Assembly (NCBI GenBank): GCA_021108075.1 | Contig: JAIORP010000090.1 | Location: forward strand, 15,828-79,827 | Reading direction: 5' to 3' | Length of the DNA stretch: 64,000 nt | From: Candidatus Omnitrophota bacterium | GTDB taxonomy: Bacteria > Omnitrophota > Gorgyraeia > Zapsychrales > Zapsychraceae | Shown here: positions 1 to 38,673 of the stretch, piece by piece | How the letters are laid out: each line of letters opens with the position of its first letter | How positions within the stretch are numbered: position 1 is the stretch's first letter | Program-made: the position numbers and the translations under genes | Notes under the pieces: model-generated | What the model saw: the letters and a program-made list of their open reading frames with translations, nothing else | Databases searched by the model: none | Told to the model about the DNA's origin: nothing

Positions 1-1
1 C

Positions 2-3000
2 GCGATTAACTTCTTTTAGATGAACATCACGACGATAAACACTTGGCTCGACATAGACATCCTTCATCGCTAATTTCTGGAAGTCTTGATTATCAAGGGC
101 AATGCTCTTCGGTTGCATTAAAATGATACTGCCAGTTGGCAAGTTATCAATCGAAATATTTATTTTGACTTGCCCTTGGTCTGCCTTTAATTCATATAAT
201 GATATGCGCGCACCTTCTGTTTTTCCAACATAAATATTGCGGTTCTTTGCATCTGCTGTTTGTTGTGCTAGTCCACCAATGTCACTGTCTTCACGTAATG
301 CTAAAACAGCGATCGGCATCATCTCATGAGGAACCACATCAACCGTATTAATCAAATCCGAATTATTGCTTGCCAGGGAGATAGCTCTTTCTATGGAGGT
401 GTTACGAATGGTCTTGGACTGACCAGCTAAGGCTGAGCCATAATCATTGGTGCTAGCAATCATTGGCATACGGATTTGAGTTGGTTGACGGGAAGAAACA
501 TTAAAAACTTGTTCATGAATAAATCCACGACTGGCCAAATTCTGAATACCTTGATTTCTGATGTCAATACTGCGCGGTTCAACCAAAACAATACTGCCAG
601 ATTGAATGTCTTGTGCCGGAACAGCTGTCTGGCTGATCTTTTGATCCGCGCCCAGTTCATAGGCAGCGACTTGATTGCCCTCCTGTCGGGCAATATAAAT
701 TTTTCGTTTTGTTCCCATCTTACCGATCGCAGCTAAATCTTCCTGCATCGGTAACACCACGATTGATGTCACTTCAGATGGAACCATGTCAGCAATTTCA
801 ATTTGCTTTACTAATTTCGGCGTTTCATAAATTGCTTTAGCGATGGTCGCGTGTTGAATTGTATTTGTCCATGATGCGATTGCTGAACCATAATCATCAG
901 CCATTGCCATCATCGGCATGCGCGTTTGTCGTGGTTGTTGATAGGACTGAGTGAAAACTTGTTCATGAATAAATCCACGACTGGCCAAATTCTGAATACC
1001 TTGATTTCTGATGTCAATACTGCGCGGTTCAACCAAAACAATACTGCCAGATTGAATGTCTTGTGCCGGAACAGCTGTCTGGCTGATCTTTTGATCCGCG
1101 CCCAGTTCATAGGCAGCGACTTGATTGCCCTCCTGTCGGGCAATATAAATTTTTCGTTTTGTTCCCATCTTACCGATCGCAGCTAAATCTTCCTGCATCG
1201 GTAACACCACGATTGATGTCACTTCAGATGGAACCATGTCAGCAATTTCAATTTGCTTTACTAATTTCGGCGTTTCATAAATTGCTTTAGCGATGGTCGC
1301 GTGTTGAATTGTATTTGTCCATGATGCGATTGCTGAACCATAATTTTGTGCAGTGGCCATTGAAGGTTGTTTGAAATCAATGTTAATGACCTTGTCATGA
1401 ACAATGCCACGTGATGATAAAGCCTGCATGTCTTGATTTCGACTTGAAACGCTGCGAGGAGCCATAAACATAATGCTTCCCGTTTCAGAATTTTGCAGCT
1501 GACGAACAGTTATTGGACTCATCTTAAGAGACTTATCCGCATTCAATTCATAGGCAATAATCTTGTTGTTGACTTCCCGTCCAACATAAATTTTCCGCTT
1601 TGTATTCATCCCCTCAAGCATTGTCATGTCTTCTTGCATCGGGAGAACAACGATAGATGACACTTCCGATGGAACCATATCAGCTATTTCAATTTGCTTC
1701 TCAATCTTTGCTTCATTATTAATCGCCGTCGCGATGGTCGCGTATCGAACGATGTTTGCTCGGGAGGCAATCGCTGATCCATAATCATTCGCTGCCATCA
1801 TTGTCGGCATTTGCATTGAAGGTTGCCTAAAGGACACGTTGTAAACCTTTTCATGCACAAAACCGCGAATGGCCAAATTCTGCATACCGCTGTTGTCAGC
1901 ACTCGCACTGCGTTGATCCACCAACACAATGCTTCCAGACGGAATCTCTTGCGCTGCAATCGCTGTTTTACTGGTTTGCTGCGTCTTATTGTCAACCTTA
2001 TACGCCTTGAACTCTGTGCCTGCCGCGCTGGCAACATAAATTTCTCTTCCCTTAATATTGGCTTGCCCCAACATTGTCATATCTTTTGGTTTTGGTAAAA
2101 CAACAACCGGCAACTCTGTTGCTGGAATCGCCTCCGCAGTCTTGAGCTGATCCATACTATCGGTTGCGTCATTGATCGCCTGCGCTAAAGTTCCGTACAG
2201 CTTAACAGTGGTCGCATGGCCGGTGATCGCTGAACCATAATCATCCGCAGGAATGATGGCTCCGGTATTACGGACTGTCACAGCGCCGCCCCATATCGCT
2301 GATCCATAACTATTCGCCGCATCCATTATTAGTATTGACGCCTGCATGCTCATCAAAGGTAATTTCCCGCTATCGCTGACTTTGTCCAAGGAACTACTCA
2401 CTACGGCAATATTTTGGGCAATCGGTTCAACTTGCCTAGCTGCAGGGCTAAAATCAACGCCCGCTGCGATCTCTTTAACGCTTGCAGTGAACTCTTGTCT
2501 TAAGCGAGCCACTTTGGCCTTACCATGGGTTGCTTCCAAGTTTTTCAATTGACTTTCCGCTAACTTAACGATCTCTTGAACCAAGACTTTTTCTTGTTGA
2601 CTCTTTGGAGTATACTCGCCACTGCTCATCGCTTGCCCCAACCTCTTAATAACCGGAGGAACTGAATTTGTTCCCTGGAGAAGCATTTTGCTGCTCAGTT
2701 TCCGGACCTTGCTTCTGACGGCTTTCGTATCCTTTAAGCCTTTTTCTTTTGCAATCTTCTTAAGTTTTCGTTCCGCCTTAAGGATCGCTAGAATGATGGG
2801 CTCTGGATTATAGCTGATATTTTGTACCTCAACAGCCTCATTATAGACTCTAATCGCCTCGTTAAAATCAGACTTCATGCTGTTCATCGAACTCATCATG
2901 GCATAATCGGATTGGCTACTGCTGGTCACAGATTCATAGCTACTCGCATACTCTTGCGGGCTTAAACCAGCCTTTAAAATTTGCTTGTCTTGCAGCGTCA

Positions 3001-6000
3001 TCATCTGCGGCACACTGACTTGTGTATTGGCGCGCGCGACTTGATCCATTTCAAACTGGGCCTGGTGACGTTGCATCATACCGCTATATTCCGCGGTCTT
3101 TCCGACCAGGGCATTGCGTGTCGCCATCTTGGCACGCAGATCATCATCGGTCTGATCAGGCTGTGTGAATGCCATAACTTCGTGCATGATACGTTGTTTG
3201 GCAATTTCTTGAGATGTCGCCGAAGAAAGTGGTTGGCCGGCGTCATTGAGATATTCTTGAATCTGATCAACCTTAGGTATAATAATGATTTCATTTTGGC
3301 GTGCGTGCCCACTAAAAACTCTTTCTCCTGTATTGCTTAAGGCTAATTTTGTTTGAACGCGCGATAAATCATCACTGGCAAATTCCTGGTTAATCGCTTG
3401 AGTAATGTCTTGCTCTCCAATATCCGCTAAAATGATCGCTTCTGGTTTTGAGGCTGTTGCGCTTGTGGCTGGAGCTAACATAGCATCTATGACGGCAATT
3501 TCACGATTGATTTCCCGGACAAGCTCTTGCTCGCCAATTTCTTGCGCGGCTTTTGCCATTGACTGCAATTCAATTTTAGCTTGTCGCGCGGCTTGAATTT
3601 GCTGTTTAACAACAGGATCTTTCTTATCTTTCGAGGCACTCATCTTTTTAGCGCTTTTGCTCTTTGATATTAAACGCTTAACAACACGGCTGATATTTTT
3701 ACTTAAATTTTTTCGCGAAGCGGTGAGGCCCACCATCATTTGTTTATCAGAAACTTTCACAGCGACGAAGCCATCTTGATCCGCTTGTCCACTTGTTTCA
3801 ATGAGCGGCATTGTTGTGCTGCGTTTGGCGATTTGATCATTGGCTCTAGCCAATAAATCCGGCTTGATCATCAAACTAAACGTGTTGACTTCCCGTCCTT
3901 CGATATTCGACGTGCCGACGCTTGTCAAAATCAAACTGTCATCAATTTGACGATTATAAATTGTTTGAGCCGGGGCTGCCGGCAACTGCGTTTGCTGTTC
4001 CATCGCGAAGAAGGCTTTTGGTTCTAATGTCTGCTGATCAAAAACAACTCTGAAATTATTGTCCGATGTGATCTTGACAACATCACCTGTGTTTAATGTG
4101 ATCTTTTGATCATCCACCGTCATTTTGATCGATTCAGCAATAACAACTTGATTGCCACTTTCCTTCAATGGTACGATTTGACGTATTTGGCCGTTTGAAC
4201 TGGCAATGGTGAAGCTTTGATCCAGATTGATCTGTTGACCGGCGCGCAATGTCAGAGCGCCAAAATGAACAGCACTGGCACCTGTATTCGCAATCGCGTT
4301 AACGCGACCGTTTTGCTGTTTAAATCCAATGATACCGGCGTCCTTCGTGCCTGAGAGCATCGTAGGATCCGAATAAATTACCGATTGTGTCGTCTTCGCT
4401 GATGCAATGTTTGACACAGAACGATCATCGTCATCAAATATGCTTGTATTATTACTTAAATACGCACGGTTTACGAAAGCATTGGAATTGTATTCAACAT
4501 TGTTATTTGCCATAGCCCTGCTTTGAGGCAATTGCTGACTTAGCGAGTTCTTTGCCATTGAACCTGACCGAGCAGGAGTCAAATCTTTCACTGTTTTGCC
4601 TTTATCATTGATCGGAGAAAATTTTCCTTTTCCTTGAGGCATCCGATTTGATACCTCTCCCTTAGAACTTCTGTGGGTAGTCGTATTGCGAGCAATTTTT
4701 ACAGTATCCAAGGTCTTGGATGTCGGTGTCGGAGCTGCCTTTCTAGTCATTCTCTTGCTTTTCGTCGACGTGTTATTATTTACCTTTTTCTTAGAACCCG
4801 TATTCTTCTTAACTTTAAATTCAAAGCCCCGTTTGCTCTTTTCAGCGCCGAAGAATCCGCTCGACCCTTTTTTGGCAAGACATGATCCGTCCGCGCAAGG
4901 ATCATCACAATTACCAGACGGACAACTGCTAGAAGCATTTAAGGCTGATGAACTTATCATCGAAAGAATTTGTTGATCTGACAGGCTGTCATACTGAATC
5001 GGAATCAACGAAGAACTCAACAAGGATGTCAATGACACACTTCCTTGCGCTAAATAAGCTGTATCTGTTGCCGGTTGATAGCTGCTGACCGCCATTGTCG
5101 TGTCAAGAGTTGGTGTTTCAGTTGGTGTACTGCTCGATGATATCGGTGCTAACATAGGGGTCATCAGTGTTGGTGTCATTTGCAGGATCGCAGCCGGCAT
5201 GGCAGCATCCATCGATGTTGCAGGGAGAACCGGTGTTATTGAGGTCGTACCCATATCGCCGATCAACATGGCTGCGTCTGTGGTTGCCTTTGGCGCCACA
5301 TAATATGTTTTTTCCGACAAGGATTCAATGACCTTGAAGGCCGCGGTAGAAACCGTCTCCGGACTTTCGCCGATATTCAGCTGCATGGTGCGTGACTGAT
5401 GCCCCGTAGAGATGAAGAGTTTATTGTTGTCTGAAACATACGCAACAACAGGGACACCCTGATAGGTGGTATTTAATCCGGCTAAATCTGCATTTTCACT
5501 ACCCTTGGCCGCACTGCTGATATGCGACTCTGAAACAACCATTTTTTCAGGGGCTGTTGTAATGTAAATGTCATCATTTTCAACGATTTCCTTTAACAAG
5601 GCGGTTTGACGGGAAACATCTGCTCCGGCTAATTCCATCCGGCCCAACAGGGCAGCGGCTTGCTGAACAATTTGACGGCCTTCGATCGCGATGTTTTCCT
5701 GCGACTTTGAGCCTGGCTGAGAAATATTCACAACATCCGATTCCATATTTAAAGAAGAGATGACCTCGCGTTCAATTTTCTGTGGCGTTACTTCTGCTGC
5801 GGCAGTCTTTTGGTCAGCCACGTCTTTGTCTCTAAACATGCCCATGACTTGTGTTCTGGAATCCTGAATTTCTGGAGACTTCCCGGCCTTCAGGGCAACA
5901 AAATCAATAACCTTTGTCGGCGCTGAAGAAAATTCTAAAATCCGTCCTGAAGATTTATCGACAACGATGCTGCGGCCGGTTACCGCATTGGTATAAATTT

Positions 6001-21000: not shown

Positions 21001-24000
21001 CGTCAACTTCGCCATTGATCCTATTTAGGGAAGGGTCTTTTTTGTCATCAGAGCCTGTTCTTTTCTGCAATTCGCTTTTATCCCATGCCACAGCAGCATA
21101 AAAGTCGGCTTTTTCCGTGTCTGTCAGCCCTGACAGATTAATTTTTTTATCATAAAACACGCTCAGAACCTTTATATCACCGCCTTCACCGATTTTTATA
21201 AAAGAACCCCCTGTTTGCGCGATGACAAATTGGTCTTCCGACACTCTTGAACCATCCATTTGAAAAACATCTACCGGCTTACCAACGCCGTAGAGGTAGG
21301 AATTCGTTTGCATGCTGGGATCTTCTTTGTTGGGAAAATTAGTGGTGATAATCTGATACTCGTAGACGCCATCATTTTTCTTATCGCGGGAATAAACATA
21401 TGTCCATTTGCCTTCGCCACCTTCGCCGTTTGGCGCAATGATACCATCCCCATTCATATCTCCGGACCTGTGCGCAACAATTGATTTATCACCATAATCG
21501 ACCATGTAAGTCAACTCTGAACCAAAAAACAAAGTCTCAGAAACCTCCGGAAGCAATAAACCGCTGCTGAATTTAAATCCGCCTTTTTGTACATATTTTG
21601 TCATTTTACCGACTTCAACCGCTGTCATTTCCTTTTCTTCCGCTAACCATTGCCCCTGTAACGCAGGAATACGTGCTTCAAGCGTGGCAATATCACGGCC
21701 GATCATAAAAGCCTCCATATCTAGCCTGACAAGTTCAATATCTTCAAGACCAGCTTCTTTTCCTTTCTCCCACGCTTCTTCTTTTTCTTCCTTCTGTTCC
21801 TTCAATGCAGCAATTTCATCATTCATCCCTGCGATGATGTTCGCATGCGCGACTTCAACATCAATTCCATGTTGTCCTTCAAGTTCAGCAATCTTTGATT
21901 CAAGCGTATTAATTTCAAGTCCCAACTCGAACACCTGCTTATCTATCCGCACGAGCAGCATATCATCCCAGCCAGCTTCACTTCCTTTCTCCAATTTGAT
22001 TTCTTCTTTTTCTTTCTTCTTTTCCAATGCATCAACTTGATTCTTCAGGTCAGCAATCTCTTCATCTGTCGTGGTATAATTTGCTAAAAACAATCGAGCT
22101 TTTTTCCCGTCCTCCCTGACAATTTGTTCAGCCGCGGCAAATAATCCAAACTTAGATATCAATTCCATCGGAAGTCCGCGAAAATCGATGACTGTTTTAC
22201 CGCCGATGTAGATCACTTTATCATTTTCCGTACCCTCTTCATCTATTACGTCTGTTTCCTCAACAATGATGCGATCCGCCCCATAAGCAATCAACTCCGG
22301 CAAAGCGTGAAAAGTCTGGTAGTCTGGCCTGCCAGCCTGTGCTGTTTTTAAATCTAATTCTAACTTGGCCACATTTTTAAACACATTGTCAACAGCGGCA
22401 CAAAGAGCCTCGAGTTTAGCCGGATCATCTGTTTTAGCTGTTTCGTCGATCAATGCTTTTAATCCCGCCTTGCCGGATTTCCATGCGGCTTTGATACGAT
22501 CACTGAAAAAGATCTTATTTCCATCATCATCCGTCTCTACTTTACCGTCAAATGATTCGCCTAGCAGGTCTCTTAACTCAGCTTCTCCTGCTCCGAGGGC
22601 TAAAAAGGCGGCTTTCTCTTCCTTATTAACTGTCTGTAGCGTTCTTGAACTATAAACCTGATTGAGCACTTCCCCTGTGTCTTCATCTATCATTGTTAGG
22701 CGCCCCATATATCGTAGTGGAAGCCCCAGATCGGTCCATGTCCTGGCTAATATGGAGTCCCTGTTCTTGCCCGGGCCGCCGTTTACCGCTGTGACGACAT
22801 GACCGAGTCCGATGATCAGAGGATTGTCGTCCACACTCGTTAAGGCGCCTTCAATAGCGGCCGTAAACGACCCGATGATGAAACGGTGCATTTGCATCGC
22901 GGGATCAATTTGATCCCAAATCTGAATCAACCACTGGTTGGTCATGGCTTCTTGAAGCTCATCCCCTTCAAGGGGCTCATCTTTTTCAGCGTTTGCTTCC
23001 AGATAGGCTTCTTCAAAATTTTCGCGTTGCTTTTTCAGCAACATGGCCTTGTCCAATGTCCACCCGCGCAAACTTGACTGAGCCTCGTACATATTCGCAA
23101 CCTCCATGCCCAGATATGAGGAATAAACCGATGGATCCATGGCATTGGCCGCGTCGGAACCTGTGAGACCGGTCGGATCTGTGGTCTCGTTCATGAAGAC
23201 AAACAGATTGTACCCACCGGCAGCTCCAATAGAAAGCCCTGTGTTCCACAACAACTTTGTCAGGGGCTCTAAAAGAACAGCACCTACTCCTTTTTCTTCC
23301 AGTGTTGTGTCAACGCTCAGGTTTGGATCGAGGCTTGGAGCCGTATTGTTATCTTCGTCTTTATTTATTTTGTCAGACAACAGCATGGCTCCGCCGGAAA
23401 ATATCATACTTCCCAAAAACATCACCCCTAAAGAGGCGAGTGTATCAAACTGCAGATCCAGATCGGAATACTCAACATTCTCACCGTCTCGTTCTCGGCC
23501 CTTACGTTTATTACCGTCCTCGTCGGTCCACTCAACACGGTCCCCTAATCTATCGTTCAAATAAGCTTCCATGCCCCAGGACAGCAAAACATTCAATAAA
23601 CCGACAATAAGCACTTTTCCTATATCTATTGTACTGATTGTGGCTAATTGTGATTCCATATGTTTAATGTTTCTGTTCGTCTGGGCCAATTGGCTCTGGA
23701 TATCGAGGCCGTCGGCACCTAATGTATTATTTGCTATTTGATCCTTGTAAGGATCAAGTTGTTGTTTTAAATCTGCCTGTTCCTTTTTTTCATCAATCAA
23801 ATCATCCTGCAGAGAAGGTTCGACAACAAATTGCCTCATAGCAGCGACGAATAAAGCGGAAACAAGGCTTCCAATGCTCTTTGATATCAAAGTTTCTTTA
23901 TCCGCCAGTCCCGTTTCGTCCGCGATCAAACGCGCCAAGGCGCCAATAAGAGGGGCAAACGTCTGAACGAGACCATCGAGCGAGGTAAATTGCTGAAGAC

Positions 24001-25972
24001 ACAACTTGAGGGAGTTTAACATAGCTTGCCCGAAGCGGGCCATTGTGCTGTTGGAATTTTTTATTGTTTTACCATTTAGATCCTTTGATCCCATTTGCAG
24101 GCCTTTATTTCCACCCATGTTAAAAACATTTTCGATGGCAAAAGAAATCGCTGTTTGAACCAATGCCCCTGCGGCCTGGCCAGCCCAGCCTGCAGCTATG
24201 GAGATAAGGGCATCTAATAAAATATTTTCATCTTCCGGGTCTATACCAAAAACATCTTCTTTCAAATACTTCTGGATATGGTATGTTATGTAACCGATAA
24301 CCGCTCCCTGGACTAATCCCGTAAACAGCCCGGACATCGCCTTACCCATACTACCGGTTACTGCTGCACCGGCAGCATTGGTACCTGAGGCCAATCCACT
24401 GGCAAGACCTTGCGCCCCAAAAGTCAAGGCCATATTAAGCGTGGTGGCCAAAAGCGCAGCTCCGTCTTCATCGCATTTACCATTGGCGCACGAATCTAAA
24501 TAATACAAAGTGGCGATAGAATCAGAAAAACTCGAGGCACCAAAACTTAAACTGATCGTTGAAAATAAACTGGCGGCGCTCGTTGATGAATTAAAAAGAG
24601 CACCGCCAATATAAAATGTTGCGATGGTAATGATTAATTGCAACGCGAAACCGGCTAGCAAATCGCCAGTATCATACAGACCGGGCAGGTCATCTGATCT
24701 GTCCGTATATTTTGATCCCCAAACAAAGGCCTGCAAGGAAGGCGGCACATCTTTATAGGAAATATCAAAATTTTGCTTGATATTTGACGCGAGAACAAAG
24801 CCTGTGAATATTCTTTGAAATTCGACAAAAGAAGCTTCTGTGACTTCACCAATATCAGAATACACAACTTTGTCTTCACTAATATTAGTGACCAGCACGA
24901 AATGTTCCGGTTCTAAATTCGCAATGAATGGCGTTTTCAGCTTAGCTAAGTCTGTTTTTTCTATGCGAGCAGGTGTGAGCTGTACGCCATAGGCCTTTGT
25001 AATCTCATTAATAGCGAACATTGATGTCTTTAATTTGCGATCACCAGGGCGAATAATGTCATTTGTTAAATCAACCAGAATGGCTGTAACCGCTAATTCT
25101 TCTAAGGAAACATCAATATTATTATGAAATAAATAGTCTTTCAATGTGTAAATACCACAATTGATAGGACGTATCTCAGGATCACGTATCCAATTTGTGA
25201 TGGAACGAACTGTTTCTTTTGTAAAGGTCGTGCTCGCGTCAATAAGAATTGATCTGGCTGCTGTAGCGCCTGTTGGTTCTGACAATTGTAGTTGTATTCT
25301 CGCATTATTTTTATATAAAATTTGATTGAGAAGTCTCGACACACTGGACGCAACTCTGGCTGATGTTATTTCCCCCTCAGAGGCATATGGTCCGACATCA
25401 TAAACGGCATCTTCTTTATTACTCCAAATAACGAGAGGGTTATAGTTAAACGCCCAGCTAGCCTGTTCCGGGATAAAAACGACCAAAATGGTCATCGCAA
25501 CAACTTTGAGCCATTGATCAAAACGACTTTTAAACGGTTTTTCTTTAGATCTGGACGAAATATGTCTTTCAATAAAATCATCATCAATAAAATGATGTTC
25601 ACCTTCAAATTTCTTCAATTCTTCTTCATCAAAGTCAAAAGCACCTTCATTAGAATTATCTTTCGCTAAGTGTGCTTCTGAAAGGATGCGATCATCAGGA
25701 TGTTGGGCATTTTTGATATGACTAGATAAATTATTAGCGCCGACAATGCAATCATGATCTTGTTGTTCATTTTCGTTTTGAATTATTGTGGAATTCACGG
25801 CAGGATGTTCGTTAAGATCATTTTGTGATGGGCTTTGGTGCTTATCCTCAGATTGGACATTTCCGTCCTGTCGCGCAGAGTCCGTACAGTCTTTCCGCTC
25901 TTTATTACTAGATGAACTAATATTCTGATCATCTGGGTCGGGAACACCTAAATTGTCCAATCTGTCATCCAT
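2..25972 (-). CDS. Giant protein, at least 8,657 codons with the C-terminus beyond the window edge. N-terminal C39-like (double-glycine/papain-fold) cysteine peptidase domain, then Gly/Ala-rich transmembrane segments, a coiled-coil region and ~150-aa tandem repeats at the visible C-terminal end.
   Basis: Hand translation from the ATG at 25972 gives an open frame: MDDRLDNLGVPDPDDQ...PINCGIYTLKDYLFHNN...PFIANLEPEHFVLVTNISEDKVVYSDIGEV...SFVEFQRIFTGFVLAS. This matches the C39 pattern of Cys...P.I..l...HFVVl...v.DP. The frame is also open at the other end (codons 2-100, ...ALDNQDFQKLAMKDVYVEPSVYRRDVHLKEVNR). The ORF track has no minus-strand ORF in this frame (highest coordinate = 1 mod 3) anywhere in 1-26000, and all other-frame ORFs are short. 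The track also omits the edge-truncated yidC. Both points are consistent with a single ORF running off the window. An alternative in-frame ATG lies at 25993. Coding texture is uniform on the minus strand throughout. Confidence 0.8.
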   Translation of the reverse strand, partial: MDDRLDNLGVPDPDDQNISSSSNKERKDCTDSARQDGNVQSEDKHQSPSQNDLNEHPAVNSTIIQNENEQQDHDCIVGANNLSSHIKNAQHPDDRILSEAHLAKDNSNEGAFDFDEEELKKFEGEHHFIDDDFIERHISSRSKEKPFKSRFDQWLKVVAMTILVVFIPEQASWAFNYNPLVIWSNKEDAVYDVGPYASEGEITSARVASSVSRLLNQILYKNNARIQLQLSEPTGATAARSILIDASTTFTKETVRSITNWIRDPEIRPINCGIYTLKDYLFHNNIDVSLEELAVTAILVDLTNDIIRPGDRKLKTSMFAINEITKAYGVQLTPARIEKTDLAKLKTPFIANLEPEHFVLVTNISEDKVVYSDIGEVTEASFVEFQRIFTGFVLASNIKQNFDISYKDVPPSLQAFVWGSKYTDRSDDLPGLYDTGDLLAGFALQLIITIATFYIGGALFNSSTSAASLFSTISLSFGASSFSDSIATLYYLDSCANGKCDEDGAALLATTLNMALTFGAQGLASGLASGTNAAGAAVTGSMGKAMSGLFTGLVQGAVIGYITYHIQKYLKEDVFGIDPEDENILLDALISIAAGWAGQAAGALVQTAISFAIENVFNMGGNKGLQMGSKDLNGKTIKNSNSTMARFGQAMLNSLKLCLQQFTSLDGLVQTFAPLIGALARLIADETGLADKETLISKSIGSLVSALFVAAMRQFVVEPSLQDDLIDEKKEQADLKQQLDPYKDQIANNTLGADGLDIQSQLAQTNRNIKHMESQLATISTIDIGKVLIVGLLNVLLSWGMEAYLNDRLGDRVEWTDEDGNKRKGRERDGENVEYSDLDLQFDTLASLGVMFLGSMIFSGGAMLLSDKINKDEDNNTAPSLDPNLSVDTTLEEKGVGAVLLEPLTKLLWNTGLSIGAAGGYNLFVFMNETTDPTGLTGSDAANAMDPSVYSSYLGMEVANMYEAQSSLRGWTLDKAMLLKKQRENFEEAYLEANAEKDEPLEGDELQEAMTNQWLIQIWDQIDPAMQMHRFIIGSFTAAIEGALTSVDDNPLIIGLGHVVTAVNGGPGKNRDSILARTWTDLGLPLRYMGRLTMIDEDTGEVLNQVYSSRTLQTVNKEEKAAFLALGAGEAELRDLLGESFDGKVETDDDGNKIFFSDRIKAAWKSGKAGLKALIDETAKTDDPAKLEALCAAVDNVFKNVAKLELDLKTAQAGRPDYQTFHALPELIAYGADRIIVEETDVIDEEGTENDKVIYIGGKTVIDFRGLPMELISKFGLFAAAEQIVREDGKKARLFLANYTTTDEEIADLKNQVDALEKKKEKEEIKLEKGSEAGWDDMLLVRIDKQVFELGLEINTLESKIAELEGQHGIDVEVAHANIIAGMNDEIAALKEQKEEKEEAWEKGKEAGLEDIELVRLDMEAFMIGRDIATLEARIPALQGQWLAEEKEMTAVEVGKMTKYVQKGGFKFSSGLLLPEVSETLFFGSELTYMVDYGDKSIVAHRSGDMNGDGIIAPNGEGGEGKWTYVYSRDKKNDGVYEYQIITTNFPNKEDPSMQTNSYLYGVGKPVDVFQMDGSRVSEDQFVIAQTGGSFIKIGEGGDIKVLSVFYDKKINLSGLTDTEKADFYAAVAWDKSELQKRTGSDDKKDPSLNRINGEVDDLIASRTPDDIVPKAGASPNNDGITPMESAVPKTSTIRSAMLGAMDDVSQPLNMGIDLFDRDAGKQILAYRGSRVQDEEDGDLVSWNSKMAVSSLNHEDGVQIYQSDDVNDPKNGAIIDATGLTIFKSVALAESYNVDAADFMFLDFQSATGSESEVGQTDYFDIRGGYWGAKEYIDDQLHQKTTDVKTDVKIGTLWAAAAAFETGAKDEDDSFILTRDGGGLYSVYDRTDKDALNAFATISYGKMTKDGTLVINSVGSFLELLQDSKGGASDHKLQTVARVVDIEDNVILSQSKDQLRLATTTENRLVSMNKAELLGLREEATEDAEAGTTYGLGVFLKKDGTYEDKDGNVVEGAALDAVLKKAVVKGNLGMIDFSVSRADSILEYGRDWGTGANPDVKAKNVTIRHKDGTMLYSPNGSGYGEIRHEGKVIGTTVQVKTGEGDDDISQYARATGDDKSHKVILNNTEALLAIDLGETVLAAGLNASVSVLINPHELKMEFKEGTTPTVENETGLLVKATNAALGAAADAKNGVTEAMQAENKAALQSGSEVKHTDAAIAAAGDQAFFSNLKEVDPNAVVKKDTIDLRWNTETGNMEMIVELDDTDQMKDPSQTDHLVSETGNTANVYVNPEDQKLIYPLPIGRIGISTKPSEDEVTYGDVTPESALTSIVLEDGGVILGQYVADKTQGISDPIYSIDGREGHLGYEGDPYTYGNFLGFTMTPVRRNIYAKNPKGNIHTNPQLLGGSMLVKNMMVGELYKKRYKGLVSGQINYFGKGDIVIDEKGQAYARQGTQTKERRPTFILGDSIDDSLFVPSLDAEENLKNQKVLEALALGLVATLDGNPDNMRDNSITLYTDVIGLQGADKKQDKTETIVLFRNDRTDKNVEDRTGMKLVLNAKLLDGKTKAYLIRKAIGTGDFDLIIPAGVKVLEDESQSVFWQGEGAGKRTVHLYDFMPGAAEKKDAPEGHSPVMTIANSHIKGRGDDLIFTNILNGRPKPKLEKKDAAEPEKPKDEEPPKEETLAATTTETEEKKINPLRSAYVLEGFGFKDITRLIYQTNDEAQTVLLADAELKLGTQFEDARRLKIAAGEEVDPSNLETTLAALKDGTEKLHITFAIGGESSEKGVKDRVLTPILNPLLTNTDSIAFISPEANENNPDKQVYFYTEQKSHEKAATRKELDDIMYLDRDNSQLNDVHEGRRLVEEGTLLHLDQSIKRDEIKGSGVADKNILAGIEFTQDGMQYFGAGELVKDGKYTLFGTFEVNPSSYADLPENYPGIINIEGWDAPGSIGIIELRGKRFLSERGNKFLGIQGEMIADVSLAAANKDKRDVPGKEEKETYFQQRIGRDAMRAGTSVGIAGEGPGWKRIIGKRKNEETGELEETGEYTDMALELTWGKFELPKTISLYNNIIPSELPSGRKMMIAPYEARPPKKGEQQGEGLTDTLEDGSHRLEIGMSDDSLDSAIYADLSDGGFKTSVLYLKMSGDILQSGNLVSMADNPEFAKVVVKFNSPGAKGVDMENGKRVDPAAGQIDVRNNRLTPTRRWNKAWDRWEEEGDDPSELDSNTMRKDDSGWFNQSYESKEKMLAGIWGRTHKKQIKRNLDGSPMLDASGNPVMEEVALPHFENTASYWDKTIRKRSVQPELGYGYYDDAHNIEDYFLAILPMSREDGGLGGVNVKGYGFIPMVRDDVVAQAYKDKRELAGKDEASLTPEEKATKEQANTIVENYRYSRSAFYTLSNPNAEDSDEAPKKSTIVTAEGGDHEGKRIIVAEDNLHTGRGLRWWRTKVTTKDGRTMYVNDDQIVEATKPTIASDGDEKEKEQQDLEPYDSPLEMMRARLDAVENKGEDFANIEINDLGIQFADANGDIRSYFTRSTDEVIRIFDTLAKHGYGSGARSVSAELHGLNKVAKIQAAIYIAEGVITVAEVVLALFTLGGSIGVGEGLKLGIGRLASSVAGRQGAKWAIRKASKEITEEVLESLVERAVKKYTFGKMMKIAGSSLGSRYITRRALYGALIGGGIVETLSLVNSGKLASGTELASGMLMGVIFNKGSLLFGSIGGMTGVGASEQTLLQAGKAFGKRALYSGAITLGVGNTASLAFRGKFLSLNENLALGAISLSIPLARAAGSKYATSFITKWAGNSTIASVALKTGQMAFADALVWGQFYATSTSALDSFQEVEESSRIGNLFGAYGRGFAFGAIAGASINLMGTASTQFARRGWAQATARGLAGGIAAGGYTLATAKENESGEGMSVLQKAGVAAIAGFGLGAAGSGLYRMAMSSKRLNIAQLSRSAKIYKNLVASGKKVPERIAKAAKQYNRLKLAAYVTGATMGGSIKVGTGMVSAKNSGQDYHWKVGVSDFVIGSMMGLVGAHLLTGASTMEGFGKYYDDVGALVKETTVGGLKWTMVSPMFTIGGSMWEGVTGKIELLIAGDDAELYNEIIDGKRVKGVMDVPLFLLKQEPKEGDAQYSKLMSAAGHDALVEGILTGPLDGLWMSVGFGALQTRAGTPLTKMGRVVEFLQKGTSKNPFVAKFYRDIVYMPGFVKAIEKGLHYVDRAASRFKEDIPGTSLSQKEKEVMSFAVMLATRSRGTLGEKERGNARRSKVQAEFKTKQAVEAEAELDAKTALTKSNNALKNKLLARKALRTAIAKGKSKTEISKIQAKIDAYTTEFDAARQVRDATQKNVIHTKLHRMDAEDIQVLKQEAHDASVNAQKEWKKALKLDPASAEAYSGMAVAGKLEHSILKEFGKDIGKDVSDAFQKNNAIMKNFALAAQLPVIWNKPLKNQIKQNREIYQIIPAIEQGWAHRAKAEEAFSRNDMDTTIIELENSNKAWRILAKIEGKSPRTQISIADNLISLRKTLQLRRAGIMDILAGNSTMKNANKLQSEIKKLTKKIDTIEGQIQTHLNRAVNATSQAMNKGVGGAAKLDGRVANVIRKYHTDLANERAIEHIAEGQRLAASEAPGNMKKAHSEFAKALKEMLNSEKLSPTDNNLIFLDQAINSLVLSEGQAKAQKEVRTSRLIAKIRYIAESMKVGAQGMQEVRFGDKAKGLELLAEAIGYGRRGERIKRIYAEAYKRETGGENLIVKSQEKTDAQETSSVESGKGNPKLSQGPPPTGKKGFTGRIQDLARKLTSPKGAGGDKGSDLDHGMLNSSSKKINDFVKRIASRRGSKTASPVAQKIDILSTASIIEKTIEKYLSGNNNFDVSQIKIQSRVSILRGMTGAEHSKYMELAKDGSTDGMKSLERTVGRRMKVQEASNLVVRAKSLGLDASKLADAITLLKGSALGSSQDSAALKSLKTAFTQVNEQVKLKSKGKPVKTSDAAKKKTRGQTDAFSLQEIYKILRDSGVTKEQAVAAIAYERLKWDYDASKGSSSRGDPSLMLGITQHLLQGAQTLKSMSEIDRLMDMFLVIKPVSGGKTDMTKSLLLTILKLKLNGKQPLLFTTASRQLVKQIISKLSESEKKFFTIAKGEHIGDYTKLATDKITVIDVEQYKAMTLQAKTKGLNLLEQALMVSDEFHVIVLADPTVISVGSIKELGKTLALNKSALTKATDRALMIKATAQAVFDVFKKLEKELGSKKAIDAMVEHVRDVNGHEIMEHFTLKDRSSLLDDAKGKQKNLTGRNGVSVRKEVRRAVVKAVKDAGITHRISEAEIQKAVNDSALALKSYQYARVEVKYHGKKEGHLVTPIDNSNLGEVKHKQTISDGSLNQAYLAMYEALGRDGRIKNFRGVSKFSYLGYEAHSQNNRLTDSATGKEALCQTGRVVGMTGTGPPLTPLIALGSSITQFVREIELGDMNSAVQITGLHGKSTHKALVEHVRKIIRKHTDIKGNRLIMINEINGVSRKAIEKAVNEVLAKEEILRVKAGKKIGQWRVVETGPESKNTDIIQEVKKLEKQAKKGETIVEKMILISAFKEGVSVMDRKLGTDINGKEIHAENGRAWIYDLNVGSTVRFQQAGARAGTWKGSKRMTGEYHILFDANHSMHTDANKVALRKAAASGSQDVVRMAVEKVMQQYAAHDFQRNVLTMMEGNAEVTKSQISRLISDYSSNSEREVIKNYLTTSGKKSTTLEMPNGKGVQTFEAVHDGTISVVRLENAGVKNAGAVVGALISRELIAPAQTQGPVTTAPIEGTMTQRMDSAMRAEIVATFGADADAIIGVIENPTDVKVTTIEASSDLGQVSIHELAAIKAMETFDLQQLTSVLEKVGISDAEKAASEIMRLKQEGALPLSAAKDFGVITRVVSSFTEMNTEDVVQALAGEILSQGITPEDIAAVRAISTLSQPQLETVFIDSGIEGASDLAKAIVTARTTSPMLVSEALSIDAIVSAAKEDIRPIASSKIKKALSTAVRTQTLDLNHGISLSAGEKLDVDSQVVYVTEGGKDRATHLLSYDSGQESELGEVQFSKLPIQEGGFVSIPSMSTEASVAPTAESVATTGGNITVRAIDTFKVSSNFKNNDQFLSSSHFTVDQDIPELGLSRGDRMSTNGKMRVAVISPKNNATRTTAAMHKGRMYRPERKKSGDMMVQTSSRPAESDAPLGFRVKADKRGLDTLTSLGLTDHIVQIKTDESISEDTTIFIPYIEFKNALNSKRQEQEVIISLEKYNQIIRGKKDIYKHGRRDVIRKRMFGDMRTLLGLAQADLDVEMVTIQDPLNPNSNQEVEVMKVTVRGDQAQSSANPELTGAINELNQKLETSFYFDPFTEKGAREKVSNASAAKTGDKTLTLGFNAFVSAVSDHVTSDGAGIFFHEIRHSEDRMAAKVATSEDALVGGPTRVHAYQPILDEKTRGAYGREGSNFAVGEFDAHSIDVGYRIAFAKEALEVGDTEAARSVGVGASESAQRAADLMNIVEYTHSRAVEQMDSGIAFVEVKKSKDPGKPDIVSVIVKDNKGADYYRIDQVIPKQDYENKQAKIQMARTLIQTSATQKQTERAQLDALANVADKFIDDQTALNAVTDGTNDQLVSLLSTAVQSERSYQGLEPTEATAQRIVAEIFRNAEAAQDLGDRKIYTNAVTGRSIVVDKSSGRILEFSSAPTKVIDFVALKAGKSPEIQDSRTQVMGMFRDKDVADQKTAAAEVTPQKIEREVISSLNMESDVVNISQPGSKSQENIAIEGRQIVQQAAALLGRMELAGADVSRQTALLKEIVENDDIYITTAPEKMVVSESHISSAAKGSENADLAGLNTTYQGVPVVAYVSDNNKLFISTGHQSRTMQLNIGESPETVSTAAFKVIESLSEKTYYVAPKATTDAAMLIGDMGTTSITPVLPATSMDAAMPAAILQMTPTLMTPMLAPISSSSTPTETPTLDTTMAVSSYQPATDTAYLAQGSVSLTSLLSSSLIPIQYDSLSDQQILSMISSSALNASSSCPSGNCDDPCADGSCLAKKGSSGFFGAEKSKRGFEFKVKKNTGSKKKVNNNTSTKSKRMTRKAAPTPTSKTLDTVKIARNTTTHRSSKGEVSNRMPQGKGKFSPINDKGKTVKDLTPARSGSMAKNSLSQQLPQSRAMANNNVEYNSNAFVNRAYLSNNTSIFDDDDRSVSNIASAKTTQSVIYSDPTMLSGTKDAGIIGFKQQNGRVNAIANTGASAVHFGALTLRAGQQINLDQSFTIASSNGQIRQIVPLKESGNQVVIAESIKMTVDDQKITLNTGDVVKITSDNNFRVVFDQQTLEPKAFFAMEQQTQLPAAPAQTIYNRQIDDSLILTSVGTSNIEGREVNTFSLMIKPDLLARANDQIAKRSTTMPLIETSGQADQDGFVAVKVSDKQMMVGLTASRKNLSKNISRVVKRLISKSKSAKKMSASKDKKDPVVKQQIQAARQAKIELQSMAKAAQEIGEQELVREINREIAVIDAMLAPATSATASKPEAIILADIGEQDITQAINQEFASDDLSRVQTKLALSNTGERVFSGHARQNEIIIIPKVDQIQEYLNDAGQPLSSATSQEIAKQRIMHEVMAFTQPDQTDDDLRAKMATRNALVGKTAEYSGMMQRHQAQFEMDQVARANTQVSVPQMMTLQDKQILKAGLSPQEYASSYESVTSSSQSDYAMMSSMNSMKSDFNEAIRVYNEAVEVQNISYNPEPIILAILKAERKLKKIAKEKGLKDTKAVRSKVRKLSSKMLLQGTNSVPPVIKRLGQAMSSGEYTPKSQQEKVLVQEIVKLAESQLKNLEATHGKAKVARLRQEFTASVKEIAAGVDFSPAARQVEPIAQNIAVVSSSLDKVSDSGKLPLMSMQASILIMDAANSYGSAIWGGAVTVRNTGAIIPADDYGSAITGHATTVKLYGTLAQAINDATDSMDQLKTAEAIPATELPVVVLPKPKDMTMLGQANIKGREIYVASAAGTEFKAYKVDNKTQQTSKTAIAAQEIPSGSIVLVDQRSASADNSGMQNLAIRGFVHEKVYNVSFRQPSMQMPTMMAANDYGSAIASRANIVRYATIATAINNEAKIEKQIEIADMVPSEVSSIVVLPMQEDMTMLEGMNTKRKIYVGREVNNKIIAYELNADKSLKMSPITVRQLQNSETGSIMFMAPRSVSSRNQDMQALSSRGIVHDKVINIDFKQPSMATAQNYGSAIASWTNTIQHATIAKAIYETPKLVKQIEIADMVPSEVTSIVVLPMQEDLAAIGKMGTKRKIYIARQEGNQVAAYELGADQKISQTAVPAQDIQSGSIVLVEPRSIDIRNQGIQNLASRGFIHEQVFTQSYQQPRQTRMPMMAMADDYGSAIASWTNTIQHATIAKAIYETPKLVKQIEIADMVPSEVTSIVVLPMQEDLAAIGKMGTKRKIYIARQEGNQVAAYELGADQKISQTAVPAQDIQSGSIVLVEPRSIDIRNQGIQNLASRGFIHEQVFNVSSRQPTQIRMPMIASTNDYGSALAGQSKTIRNTSIERAISLASNNSDLINTVDVVPHEMMPIAVLALREDSDIGGLAQQTADAKNRNIYVGKTEGARISLYELKADQGQVKINISIDNLPTGSIILMQPKSIALDNQDFQKLAMKDVYVEPSVYRRDVHLKEVNR
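504..1344. repeat. Intragenic tandem duplication inside the giant gene. Two copies with a 450-bp period (504-894 and 954-1344) are identical over ~391 bp. More diverged copies of the same ~150-aa unit lie at ~1-480, ~1380-1800 and ~1830-2330.
   Basis: Direct line-by-line comparison of the sequence. Track ORFs 460..693 and 910..1143 give identical peptides offset by 450 bp. The unit translates on the minus strand as ...DYGSAIASWTNTIQHATIAKAIYETPKL... Confidence 0.85.
21690..22040. repeat. Internally duplicated coiled-coil-like segment (E/K-rich) within the giant gene.
   Basis: Two similar stretches (~21700-21850 and ~21890-22040) are seen in the DNA (...atcttcaagaccagcttcttttcctttctcc... vs ...atcatcccagccagcttcacttcctttctcc...). 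The minus-strand translation is rich in E, K and L heptad-like sequence. Confidence 0.5.
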
Positions 25973-26878
25973 ATTTTTTATCGGAAAACCTAGCAACAAA
26001 CATTAAAATTAGACTTTATGATTATCTGAAAACCCGAATAAAACGTATTTACAAAAAACGTATAACCTTAAAAATTGCTAGATACCATTTACTTATAAAT
26101 TTTAGAGTAAACTGTTAGTAAAACTATGGCACTATATGGTATGCATAAAAAAAGACCACCTAGAACAGAAGGTAATCTGATTGCTTGTTTGCGATTAGGA
26201 TTTTTCTATTTATTTGTTTTTTTCCGAGCCTCACGGATTCCCTCTCATTCTTAGTTAACCGGCTAACTCCAAGCTTTTTAAGTATATCATATTATATATA
26301 TGTGACAAGGGTTATGCAATTTTTTTTTCAACTTTATGTTGTTTATTTTCAAGATGTTACAACTTTTTTTTGTAAATGGGTTTATTATATACAAAAATGG
26401 GGGCATTCTTCCGACGAAAAATTCAAAAAATGGTCTTTTTGTTCCGTTTGAAAACGTTTTCGCATTAGGCCGTATTTCTTGCTTTTGCTTTTTTTTCAAA
26501 GACTTACAAACACAGTTAAAACTAATTTTTAATTCACTCGCAACTAACAATATTTAAACAAAAAAAAAGAAACCGCTTTCCTGAGGCGACGTCTTTAGAA
26601 TATTTTATTTATTTTATTAAAAATAATAAAAGAAGCTCATACTCCAACAGATTGGACACGGAACAGACCGGACGCTCAAATTCGCCTCTGGTGCACATTT
26701 TTCTCAAATTGATACATGGATATGCTTTCGCATAATTTCGTATGCCTAAAGGGCATTTAAACGCAAAATAAGGGCAAATATACCAAGGAGACCTCGACAA
26801 TCTGTAAATCTTCAAAAACGGTTGCTTAACAATCCTCAGAAACATAATCCGCCTCAGCCAGCATTCGCCATCCCGTGA

Positions 26879-29469: not shown

Positions 29470-30366
29470 TTAACCGCCGGCCAAACCTGCGAATGGATTA
29501 TTCTGAGTAAAGTCCAGCAAAATCGGACCAGCAACGAGAATACCAACAACTGGAAAAATAAATATCAAAAGTGGAACAAGCATTTTTATCGGAGCTTTAA
29601 GAGCTAGCTGTTCACCGCGTCGATAACGAGCGAGACGCATATCCTCTGAAAGAATGTTTAAAGCGTCAATAACAGAGGTTCCCATTTTGTCGGCTTGAAT
29701 AAGCGTTCGGGCAAATGTGGATAAATCCGGCAAATCATATCGCAAGGCCAAGTCTTTAATAGCATCACGACGTGTCTTACCCACACTAATTTCCTGCAAA
29801 ACAACGTTCAACTCTTGGATCATGATTGACGGTGGTGACTTCTCAACAACCCATTTGAGGGCCAACATAAAGTCCAGACCAGCATTAACACAAAGGGCCA
29901 ATAAGTCAATCGCGTCCGGCAAATCCTTGACAATACTTTCCTTGGCTTTTTTAATCTTTCCTTTTAAAAGGAATTCCGGAACCATGTATCCGGCAACCAG
30001 CCCGATACACAACCACATAAAGATAAAATCAGCGGATACAGATGGAAAAGTCACCAATAAAACGACGAAACCCAACAGCTCTTTGACCAAAAAGAATTCT
30101 TCCGGAGTTAAATTAACGTGGGCAATAGCCAAATCTCTTGAAACCCGACGTCTAACAGCCCCTGAACAAAACGGTTTATTGATTTTTGATAAAGTTCTGA
30201 ACAGTAAAAAAATACTGTCTCTTTTCCTCTTTTTTGTGTCTGGTTCTGTTAATCCTAAATGTAATGTCGGCCGTGACTCCCAGTCAACAGGCATGATTCC
30301 AAGGATTAAACTAAACGCGCATAAATAAACCATGATCAAAATTAACTCTAACATAATAACTCCCAA
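29470..30366 (-). CDS. tadC: TadC-like type II secretion system F-domain inner-membrane protein.
   Basis: 298 aa with multiple TM helices. The T2SSF-domain region ...LKWVVEKSPPSIMIQELNVVLQEISVGKTRRDAIKDLALRYDLPDLSTFARTLIQADKMGTSVIDALNILSEDMR... is present. It lies adjacent to a TadB-like gene. Confidence 0.75.
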   Translation of the reverse strand: MGVIMLELILIMVYLCAFSLILGIMPVDWESRPTLHLGLTEPDTKKRKRDSIFLLFRTLSKINKPFCSGAVRRRVSRDLAIAHVNLTPEEFFLVKELLGFVVLLVTFPSVSADFIFMWLCIGLVAGYMVPEFLLKGKIKKAKESIVKDLPDAIDLLALCVNAGLDFMLALKWVVEKSPPSIMIQELNVVLQEISVGKTRRDAIKDLALRYDLPDLSTFARTLIQADKMGTSVIDALNILSEDMRLARYRRGEQLALKAPIKMLVPLLIFIFPVVGILVAGPILLDFTQNNPFAGLAGG

Positions 30367-30387
30367 ATTTCTTTATTTCGCTAAAAC

Positions 30388-31245: not shown

Positions 31246-31357
31246 ATCTATTTTTCCATATTAATACACTATTTTAGAGTTAGTTTAAACCTAATATTGA
31301 TAAGGATAACATGAAAAAGTCGATCAAACAAGTGATCCGGACCAAATAATTCACAGA

Positions 31358-31696
31358 TTAACTTTGACATGTCGGCGTGGCACAAAGGGCAATAATGTCC
31401 TGACAGGTTGTGGGGTCGGGGTATCCATCCGTGCGGCAATATCCTCCGTTGGCCTTGAAACATCGGTAATCATACCAACAATATGTCCAATCCTGATCAT
31501 ACACGCATTCAATGGTCTCATCTGCATCATACAGGCGTCCAAAAGCCCAAGCGGAACCGGCCTTCTTCCAACTCCCATCCATGGCCCGCACAATATATTT
31601 TTGGAAAATCAAAAAAGCCCCTAGAAGCAAAAACATCATGGCCAAGAATTCCAAAGTCGATTGCCCTTTTCGATTTCTTTTCAACATAACCCTCAC
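31358..31696 (-). CDS. Small Flp/type IV pilin-like protein with a cysteine-rich C-terminal domain (8 Cys).
   Basis: N-terminal class III signal motif RKG|QSTLEF followed by a hydrophobic stretch. The C-terminal half is ...CVYDQDWTYCWYDYRCFKANGGYCRTDGYPDPTTCQDIIALCATPTCQS. Confidence 0.65.
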   Translation of the reverse strand: MRVMLKRNRKGQSTLEFLAMMFLLLGAFLIFQKYIVRAMDGSWKKAGSAWAFGRLYDADETIECVYDQDWTYCWYDYRCFKANGGYCRTDGYPDPTTCQDIIALCATPTCQS

Positions 31697-31767
31697 GTTC
31701 TCAATCGTTTCCTTCCATAATTCAAAAGTGAATCTCCTCGCAGCAGAGCTCAGAGGAATTCACTCCA

Positions 31768-36735: not shown

Positions 36736-36758
36736 GCTTACCTCCTAAAAAAACTTCA

Positions 36759-37118: not shown

Positions 37119-37147
37119 GTTAATACACCTTCAGTTGAATAAAACTA

Positions 37148-38620: not shown

Positions 38621-38636
38621 GTTAATCTAAAATTGT

Positions 38637-38673
38637 CGGTTCAGCCATGTTCCTGTTCACTGGCTGAACCGAA
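38637..38673. promoter_or_regulatory. Perfect 12-bp inverted repeat with a 13-nt spacer (TCGGTTCAGCCA-N13-TGGCTGAACCGA) in the short gap between the last pilin gene and the TadG-like gene. No flanking T-run. Intercistronic stem-loop or operator.
   Basis: Read directly from the sequence. Lies between the pilin stop at 38679 and the TadG-like start at 38620. Confidence 0.6.

Follow-up and report, generated by a model that had tools for sequence, protein, structure and literature searches.

A giant Omnitrophota gene with an N-terminal C39-type peptidase domain downstream of a Tad-like locus

Giant proteins of the Omnitrophota are among the largest predicted in any organism. Here we report the analysis of a giant gene on contig JAIORP010000090.1 of assembly GCA_021108075.1, a metagenome-assembled genome (MAG) of a Candidatus Omnitrophota bacterium (Gorgyraeia; Zapsychrales; Zapsychraceae). 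The analysis covered a stretch of 64,000 nucleotides (contig positions 15,828 to 79,827, forward strand), hereafter called the window. The window is laid out from dnaA-dnaN-dciA-gyrB-gyrA leftwards via a Tad-like pilus/secretion locus to the giant gene, all of it co-directional with replication, and a GC-skew switch near 60-64 kb suggests the position of the origin. The giant open reading frame (ORF) is a genuine single gene of an Omnitrophota bacterium, and its predicted product begins with a C39-type cysteine peptidase domain that carries an intact Cys-His-Asp triad.

The giant reading frame and its assembly support

The gene occupies the left part of the window:

2..25972, minus strand: giant ORF of at least 8,657 codons from the ATG at 25972, with no stops, host-like codon usage and independent contigs that are identical where compared; its C-terminus lies beyond the window

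A preliminary description of the window, made from the letters alone, had claimed a single unbroken frame of at least 8,657 codons that leaves the window, and this was borne out on full translation. The frame holds no stop in the 8,664 codons counted from 25993 down to window position 2; the other two minus-strand frames hold 478 and 733 stops over the same span. It begins after a TAA at 26003-26005 and is open from 26002 to 2 (8,667 codons), with its first ATG at 25972, which gives 8,657 codons and at least 25,971 nt within the window. Of the two starts proposed in that description, 25972 stands as an ATG and 25993 falls, being a CTA codon and no start. Alternative starts are TTG 25999, TTG 25996 and TTG 25960, the last of which corresponds to the gene calls on the independent contigs. 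With one stop expected per ~15 codons from the base composition of the strand (p = 0.0655), the probability of finding no stop over the giant frame by chance is ~1e-255. Codon log-odds, trained on 10 neighbouring genes including gyrA, gyrB, dnaA and dnaN, are +0.20 to +0.32 bits per codon for the giant frame and negative in both alternative frames, and the coding signal is positive in 17 of 17 consecutive 500-codon windows (amino acids, aa, 1-8,500). The only Rfam match in the window is a tRNA-Glu, with nothing inside the giant gene, so no ribozyme or intron interrupts it.

The GC content of the giant gene is 44-47% (window 1-24000), compared with 37-40% for the housekeeping and Tad genes (44000-60000), and despite the higher GC its codon preferences are those of the housekeeping and Tad genes. 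The higher GC probably reflects a Gly/Ala-rich composition and not a foreign origin. An origin from a phage, a plasmid or a polyvalent protein was dropped on account of the chromosomal locus, ~35 kb from dnaA/oriC, and the host codon usage. GyrA, GyrB and DnaA encoded in the window are exact matches to MCD4780123, MCD4780124 and MCD4780127, all from a 'Candidatus Omnitrophota bacterium' MAG. Together with the relatives of the C39 head, which nearly all sit in Omnitrophota-labelled MAGs where their lineage is named, these matches confirm the Omnitrophota-like lineage guessed earlier.

Independent contigs were compared from ENA (ERZ26872899, ERZ26872904) and from Logan (SRR15668621, SRR32473238, SRR32473237). 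Wherever the fetched parts of these five overlap the window, their identity to it is 99.99-100%; jointly they cover 16879-28577. In three of the five the giant ORF stays open for 7,893-8,077 codons, to the contig ends. Short-read contigs of the strain stop at window 2280, 2255 or 1730, which is the start of the C-terminal repeat array, and their upstream ends fall inside a 232-bp tandem repeat at 28275-28729. The repeat array (window ~1-2257) comes from the source assembly alone, and its copy number is thus that of one assembly. The join across the 232-bp repeat is credible because the adjacency of tadC and the giant gene is conserved in relatives. As to the 3' end of the giant gene, the flanks of contigs with the neighbouring genes halt at the repeats, and a scan of JGI metagenomes with the last 301 aa gave no match.

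That assembly error, through a chimeric join or the collapse or expansion of a repeat, produced all or part of the ORF, and that the true gene is of another length or split, is highly improbable: the breaks of all the strain's short-read contigs at the two repeats, a perfect 391-nt duplication within the C-terminal array, an early ORF stop in four of 56 relatives and a relative split into several ORFs speak for it, and against it stand the five near-identical contigs with their long open frames, codon usage that is uniform along the ORF, a tadC-giant gene adjacency across the join that is the conserved arrangement among relatives, and an ortholog fragment, P0009 (~61-64% identity in aligned regions), that by inspection appears colinear with aa ~3400-8050. 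Chimerism of the first ~7,900 codons is unlikely, and such doubt as there is concerns the repeat copy number (window 1-2255).

The C39 head, its relatives and the rest of the protein

The peptidase domain and its predicted catalytic residues lie as follows:

24773..25192, minus strand: C39 cysteine peptidase core, aa 261-400; the confidently folded part is aa ~193-413 (window 24734-25396)
25157..25159, minus strand: codon of Cys272, the predicted nucleophile, in the motif N-C-G (PINCGIYTL); aligned to ComA Cys17, at a helix N-terminus in the model, 100% conserved
24902..24904, minus strand: codon of His357, in the motif E-H-F-V (EPEHFVLV); aligned to the LahT150 His and ComA His96, 100% conserved
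24854..24856, minus strand: codon of Asp373, in the motif S-D-I-G (VVYSDIGEV); aligned to the LahT150 Asp and ComA Asp112, 100% conserved and outside the search patterns

An N-terminal C39 or papain-fold peptidase, with these three motifs, had been named in the preliminary description, and both the assignment and the catalytic positions held. The match to Pfam PF03412 (Peptidase_C39) scores 32.1-34.4 bits, well above the cutoff of 22 (E = 1.2e-7 to 2.3e-8). An AlphaFold model of the head, built from an alignment of nine homologs, has a predicted local distance difference test score (pLDDT) of 80-94 over aa ~193-413; its best Foldseek matches are PCAT1, LahT150, the HlyB C39-like domain and ComA, and its papain-like fold is superimposable on solved C39 domains. 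Alignment with hhalign to ComA(1-154), a query sequence identical to PDB 8hf7, places Cys272 on Cys17, His357 on His96 and Asp373 on Asp112 (E = 9e-6), and in the alignment of the family profile to LahT150, His357 falls on the His of NHFVV and Asp373 on the Asp of INDPA. Searches of PDB sequences gave nothing with a profile from the untrimmed alignment, and nothing with phmmer on the single domain. Conservation of each of the three is 100% across this protein and 55 relatives (56 sequences), where the invariance of Cys and His is partly due to ascertainment, as the patterns used for the genome-collection search included NCG and EHF, and that of Asp373 is fully independent of it. On these alignments the N-terminal domain is probably an active C39-type cysteine protease.

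C39 domains typically belong to ATP-binding cassette (ABC) exporters that handle double-glycine leader peptides. Over all 8,657 aa, Pfam searches gave no match to ABC_membrane or ABC_tran, and the NCBIfam PCAT models match the peptidase part alone, far below their cutoffs. Membership in the PCAT/AMS transporters was rejected, since the C39 domain comes without any ABC transmembrane or ABC ATPase domain.

Relatives of the head were found in two ways. With the first 1,000 aa, eight homologous proteins were recovered, all with PF03412, and the four that are named at NCBI are Omnitrophota or Omnitrophica. A scan of a genome collection that holds one genome per GTDB species, and in which the source genome is not included, found 56 loci with a domain identity of 36-50%; most of them carry an Omnitrophota label and many the third-party-annotation (TPA) label 'uncultured Planctomycetales', while two have no classification. 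In 52 of these loci no stop interrupts the C39 ORF before the fetched DNA ends, over as many as ~3,700 codons. Alignment to those relatives is confined to aa ~130-470 (at most 731) of the giant protein. Among 13 relatives scanned over their first ~3,650 aa, the C39 domain is present in all 13, OmpA in two and hexapeptide repeats in one. A profile search for full-length relatives in a set of 5.8 billion proteins gave short fragments only. By sequence, the family presents itself as a conserved head of signal or transmembrane (TM) segment, C39 and TM segment (~340 aa), followed by a hypervariable, lineage-specific body.

In one relative (L007, on a 348-kb contig, 10001-22907), the homolog is called as consecutive ORFs of 968, 1,943, 738 and 2,265+ aa, the first two of which overlap by 4 nt. 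Either assembly indel errors or a genuinely fragmented giant gene would account for this splitting.

The other parts of the giant protein, in order from its N-terminus, are:

25538..25972, minus strand: acidic low-complexity N-terminal extension, aa 1-145, with no conservation among relatives before the PFKSRF motif
25436..25537, minus strand: PFKSRFxxW basic motif, short hydrophobic segment VVAMTILVVFIP and PEQxSWAFNYNP, aa 146-179, conserved
23183..24661, minus strand: first Gly/Ala/Ser-rich hydrophobic TM-like cluster, aa 438-930, from hydropathy and uncharged-stretch scans, preceded by the invariant W418-G419
21650..22057, minus strand: duplicated charged segment, aa 1306-1441, helical or coiled-coil-like by composition only
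13853..15295, minus strand: second Gly/Ala/Ser-rich (39%) hydrophobic TM-like cluster, aa 3560-4040, from hydropathy and uncharged-stretch scans
9053..10795, minus strand: P-loop NTPase-like region, aa 5060-5640, by motifs only, its homology without statistical support
6761..6775, minus strand: HEIRH, aa 6400-6404, the sole HExxH in the protein, identical in the ortholog fragment P0009
2..2257, minus strand: at least five tandem repeats of ~147-152 aa, aa 7906-8657, the array continuing off the window

TM segments and topology were called from crude hydropathy, uncharged-stretch scans and charge counts. In the signal-like region, F166, P168 and Y177 are 100% conserved in 56 sequences, A174 is 98% and S172 91% conserved, hydropathy peaks at aa 157-175, and the N-terminal flank of the hydrophobic segment is richer in Lys/Arg (3.1 versus 1.5). 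We take aa 146-179 for a putative signal anchor or extended signal peptide, with a possible signal peptidase I site after S-W-A174. The Gly/Ala/Ser-rich, membrane-like segments that had been described after the C39 domain are recovered by crude hydropathy as the two clusters listed above, and the C-terminal ~150-aa tandem repeats, also described before, were located as five units that start at aa 7906, 8058, 8208, 8358 and 8505. Two neighbouring units share the perfect 391-nt duplication (504-894 = 954-1344; TRF: period 450, 1.9 copies, 100% match), which arose by duplication or gene conversion in the very recent past or else stems from the assembly. The two halves of the charged duplication, aa 1306-1367 and 1380-1441, align over 62 aa at an offset of 74 with 45% identity (E = 5.5e-7, internal BLASTP); by its composition this segment fits the coiled coils named in the preliminary description.

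Apart from C39, nothing credible was found with 24,736 Pfam and 18,950 NCBIfam models, for the whole protein or for 990-aa tiles of it. In the P-loop NTPase-like region, GGKT at 5072, DEFH at 5171, SDG..NQA at ~5360, GMTGTG at 5421 and QQAGARAG at 5609 follow the order and spacing of SecA, in a post hoc reading. No Pfam match to SecA was obtained for the whole protein, the tiles or the isolated region, even at E <= 10; the PDB sequence search was not significant, nor were BLASTP and hhalign against E. coli SecA, and a word-indexed homolog search with this region gave no matches. An AlphaFold2 model of the region from a two-sequence alignment has a pLDDT of 40 and is unusable. The SecA resemblance of aa 5060-5640 is a motif-level lead only. 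In an exhaustive phmmer search of 1.84 billion representative proteins, aa 4991-5800 had a single match, the 61% identical P0009. HEIRH is a possible zincin-like site.

The ortholog fragment P0009 is 5,039 aa long and contains, near its C-terminus, an insert of roughly 300-400 aa that is absent from the window protein. The insert has Cys...His...Asp motifs (RIDCW, GYHAYG, WFSIDAA) that resemble a transglutaminase-like or papain-like core, and it illustrates the gain or loss of modules between close relatives.

The Tad-like locus upstream

The genes and elements upstream of the giant gene were identified from Pfam matches and sequences, and are given here in transcription order:

29470..50642, minus strand: conserved Tad-like pilus/secretion locus as a whole
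49686-50642, minus strand: Rotamase_2 peptidyl-prolyl isomerase (PPIase), first in transcription order
48796-49665, minus strand: RcpC/CpaB
47116-48792, minus strand: secretin with TonB_C
44863-47046, minus strand: CpaE-CpaF fusion ATPase
44427-44768, minus strand: DUF192, followed by a 674-aa unknown protein
38679-42063 and 31358-31696, minus strand: at least eight Flp/class-III-signal pilin-like ORFs with G/A-Q-S-T-x-E-Y/F N-termini
within the locus, before the 1,655-aa protein, minus strand: TadE-like 490-aa protein, then a 119-aa protein
31768-36735, minus strand: Cys-rich TadG-like 1,655-aa protein with a TadG-like hydrophobic N-terminus
30388-31245, minus strand: TadB
29470-30366, minus strand: TadC
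29162-29269 and 53867-53974: 108-nt element in two direct copies of 92.6% identity, with the inverted repeat TTCTCG-N9-CGAGAA
28275-28497 and 28507-28729: two tandem copies of a 232-bp direct repeat (98% identity), within 1.7 kb that is free of ORFs of at least 70 aa and separates tadC from the DUF1016/SNase gene
26879-27751, minus strand: DUF1016_N and staphylococcal-nuclease (SNase) gene between tadC and the giant gene

The Tad-like set in the window is complete. Where enough upstream DNA is available among the 56 relatives, the order p490-p119-p1655-TadB-TadC-C39 ORF is nearly always found. The 1,655-aa protein, which has no Pfam match, is extremely Cys-rich with CPACPAHPSCATT-type repeats (a 72-nt repeat at 32978-33139) and is syntenic across Omnitrophota; from its sequence it may be a pilus tip or a minor-pilin-associated adhesin. 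The C-terminal TonB_C domain of the Tad secretin (E = 5e-15) is an unusual fusion for a secretin of the RcpA/CpaC type, and the at least eight pilin-like ORFs form an unusually large pilin set.

The interval between tadC and the giant gene is ~0.4-1.4 kb in most other relatives. In 'Ca. Zapsychrus exili' a DUF1016 homolog (33% identity) lies at the same spot (~6368) on the opposite strand, and the interval may be an insertion hot spot. Each copy of the 232-bp repeat holds the same weak promoter-like site and has no match in Rfam. Of the two copies of the 108-nt element, one lies just 3' of tadC and a terminator-like hairpin, the other just 3' of the tRNA-Glu and a hairpin, and they bracket an entire 24.6-kb block with the Tad locus. 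The element may act in regulation, encode a small RNA or be the trace of an old recombination event.

Proposed role, alternatives and comparison with known systems

Building on the observed integrity and lineage of the gene, the C39 fold and triad, the synteny and the conservation pattern, we infer a topology, a protease activity, a substrate and a cellular role. The hydrophobic segment would direct export, with the C39 domain facing the periplasm, and the giant protein would stay anchored in the inner membrane via the following TM cluster, beside the TadB/TadC platform. The C39 domain would be an active cysteine protease whose most likely substrate is the giant protein, cleaved in cis or in trans, or else a partner exported with it, and such cleavage would release or mature extracytoplasmic pieces. 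The variable body and the repeat array would coat the cell surface or work as an adhesin or effector when host or prey cells are met, as has been proposed for Velamenicoccus archaeovorus and for other Omnitrophota; this contact role is drawn from the literature only, where giant proteins are proposed to help cells adhere to their host or prey, or digest it. Taken as a whole, a member of the giant class with a conserved C39 head, an active periplasmic protease and a variable surface body is the explanation that we regard as probable. Strict conservation of the triad argues for an active protease. Export and a periplasmic location are supported by the Lys/Arg enrichment of the N-terminal flank, by the resemblance of P168 and S-W-A174 to a signal-peptide c-region, by the peptidoglycan-binding OmpA domains in two relatives and by the signal peptides reported beside C39 in the literature.

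Several points weigh against this explanation. The protein is known from its sequence, and its topology was predicted from a crude charge count and hydropathy. The conservation of Cys and His in the 56 loci was partly enforced by the search patterns. The oxyanion-hole Gln, which stands six residues before the Cys in ComA and PCAT1, is E266 here, in a column that is variable in the family, and activity could for this reason be reduced or altered; N271, at position -1 to Cys272, is invariant and might compensate for the missing Gln. Double-glycine-type motifs number 17 in the giant protein by a regex scan, compared with 16.5 +/- 4.1 in shuffles, and as they are not enriched there is no in-silico sign of classical C39 cleavage sites. 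The enzyme set of Archaeovorin and dockerin/TSP3 repeats are absent, and SecA_DEAD is statistically undetectable. Finally, the 3.5 kb between tadC and the giant gene holds a terminator-like hairpin, the repeat-rich 1.7-kb gap and the DUF1016/SNase gene, which makes co-transcription of the giant gene with the Tad operon doubtful. A promoter-like site lies ~310 bp upstream of the giant-gene ATG, and in this genome the giant gene may be its own transcription unit.

A possible, if unlikely, alternative is that the head is a dedicated docking and maturation module that faces the periplasm, and that a Tad-derived secretion machine has the giant protein as its client or as one of its structural components; C39 would then cut the giant protein or a pilus-associated partner in the periplasm for release through the secretin. 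To our knowledge, the C39 protease has until now been known only as a cytoplasmic appendage of ABC exporters. If true, this arrangement would for the first time link a C39 protease with a type IVb pilus-like apparatus and offer a general export route for proteins of 10,000 to >100,000 aa.

It is quite unlikely that the C39 domain is non-catalytic and, like that of HlyB, binds or chaperones an unfolded secretion substrate (the giant protein or a partner) with no cutting. The C39-like domain of HlyB is without the catalytic Cys, and known C39-like domains have lost it, as is established for HlyB. Here, in contrast, none of Cys272, His357 and Asp373 varies among 56 sequences whose domains are only 36-50% identical, the best matches include the active peptidases LahT150, ComA and PCAT1, and the domain differs from the HlyB type also in that no ABC transporter accompanies it and no type I secretion partners were found in the window.

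Little credence is given to the view that the protein resembles MARTX, CdiA or polyvalent proteins and is secreted as a polymorphic toxin or a polyprotein of effectors, with a protease that would free toxic modules only once inside a target cell and would not act on a resident envelope or coat protein. Pfam and NCBIfam reveal no domain for toxicity, immunity or delivery, the two TM-like clusters argue for a membrane-resident protein, and the protease is N-terminal beside the anchor, not between effector modules.

The C39 head might, lastly, be a Tad maturation protease that removes the leaders of the Flp/class-III pilins in place of TadV/CpaA (A24). It is strictly syntenic with tadB-tadC in 56 species, the ORFs scanned over the 38 kb upstream of the giant gene include no A24 prepilin peptidase of the TadV/PilD type, and in the at least eight pilin-like ORFs the predicted P1 of the G/A|QSTxEY site is a small residue, G or A. 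Prepilin leaders, however, are removed on the cytoplasmic side of the membrane, whereas the predicted location of the C39 domain is the periplasm. At P2 the pilin sites carry K, Q or W where C39 substrates have Gly, and the leaders lack GG. Type IVa pili also occur in Omnitrophota (Seymour et al. 2023, PMC10066038), and with such pili an A24 peptidase is normally expected at another place in the genome. Autoprocessing and the processing of adjacent pilins or an adhesin were the two possible roles named in the preliminary description; both the topology and the cleavage sites make pilin processing by the head look unlikely, and slightly less weight still falls on this proposal than on the toxin.

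The gene does not open a new category: it is one more giant gene beside Tad genes, of a kind described since 2022-2023. What is new here is that the ~340-aa head with its intact triad is the sole conserved piece across 56 species, fixed behind tadB-tadC. This C39 head is a small, experimentally tractable handle on an otherwise unalignable protein class, and an entry point to the question whether the giants are processed polyproteins and how they are linked to the Tad-like machine. For annotation, the lesson is that an Omnitrophota 'C39 domain-containing protein' is usually the start of a giant gene truncated by short-read assemblies.

Compared with the C39 domains of ComA, PCAT1 and LahT, the one described here has no ABC domains, its oxyanion Gln is not conserved and no double-glycine leader substrate is evident; it would lie in the periplasm, after a signal or anchor segment, whereas theirs are cytoplasmic. 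A functional analogy, drawn from general knowledge, can be made with LapG/LapA and with the cysteine protease domain (CPD) of MARTX. LapG is a separate polypeptide of the C93/BTLCP family and the MARTX CPD belongs to C80, so the protease families differ, and no sequence or fold evidence for C93 or C80 was found here. Alike are the coupling of a cysteine protease to a giant, repeat-containing extracytoplasmic protein and the plausibility of proteolysis as a release or maturation step.

The closest known systems are the Omnitrophota giants themselves, among them the 39,678-aa protein of Velamenicoccus archaeovorus LiM. A C39-like domain heading a giant surface protein had been thought undescribed in the preliminary description, a claim that did not hold up: West-Roberts et al. 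2023 (10.1101/2023.11.21.568195) and a 2026 preprint (10.64898/2026.06.07.730766) both report it. In the former, full-length Omnitrophota giants have C39 near the N-terminus beside predicted signal peptides and are preceded by conserved gspD/E/F homologs, rcpC, a Rotamase_2 PPIase and class-III-signal small genes, with the emphasis on giants of >30,000 aa and with a SecA_DEAD or SecA preprotein-binding domain in 'most'. In the latter, the PF03412-only architecture forms the largest of the clusters into which 916 long Omnitrophota proteins fall, and secretion or pilus genes flank 13 of 14 giants. Seymour et al. 2023 found that most Omnitrophota classes have ORFs >20 kb, which contain few domains and are poorly conserved. 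Further features of the class are numerous TM helices, an S8 peptidase as an alternative to C39 and, downstream of the gene, small PilZ genes, solute-binding proteins or glycosyl hydrolases, a region that for the present gene falls outside the window.

With at least 8,657 aa within the window, and the 3' end of the gene outside, the visible part of the protein is shorter than the emphasised >30,000-aa giants. Unlike Archaeovorin, it has no glycosyltransferase, glycoside hydrolase, methyltransferase, NUDIX or HEAT domains in its 8,657 aa, and unlike the Dockerin-type it has no dockerin or TSP3 repeats there, each searched for in the whole protein and in the 990-aa tiles. It resembles the Omnitrophota giants in phylum, in an ORF of >20 kb, in the N-terminal C39 domain beside a signal or TM segment, in its many TM-like segments, and in its few other annotatable domains and poor conservation. 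The locus is alike as well, with a Rotamase_2 PPIase, RcpC, a GspD-like secretin, a T2SSE ATPase, two T2SSF proteins and class-III-signal small genes. In the part within the window the gene fits neither Archaeovorin nor the Dockerin-type and, agreeing with the class in every feature that could be compared except a detectable SecA_DEAD, it belongs to the described class of giant, membrane-associated Omnitrophota proteins encoded downstream of a Tad/type-II-like locus.

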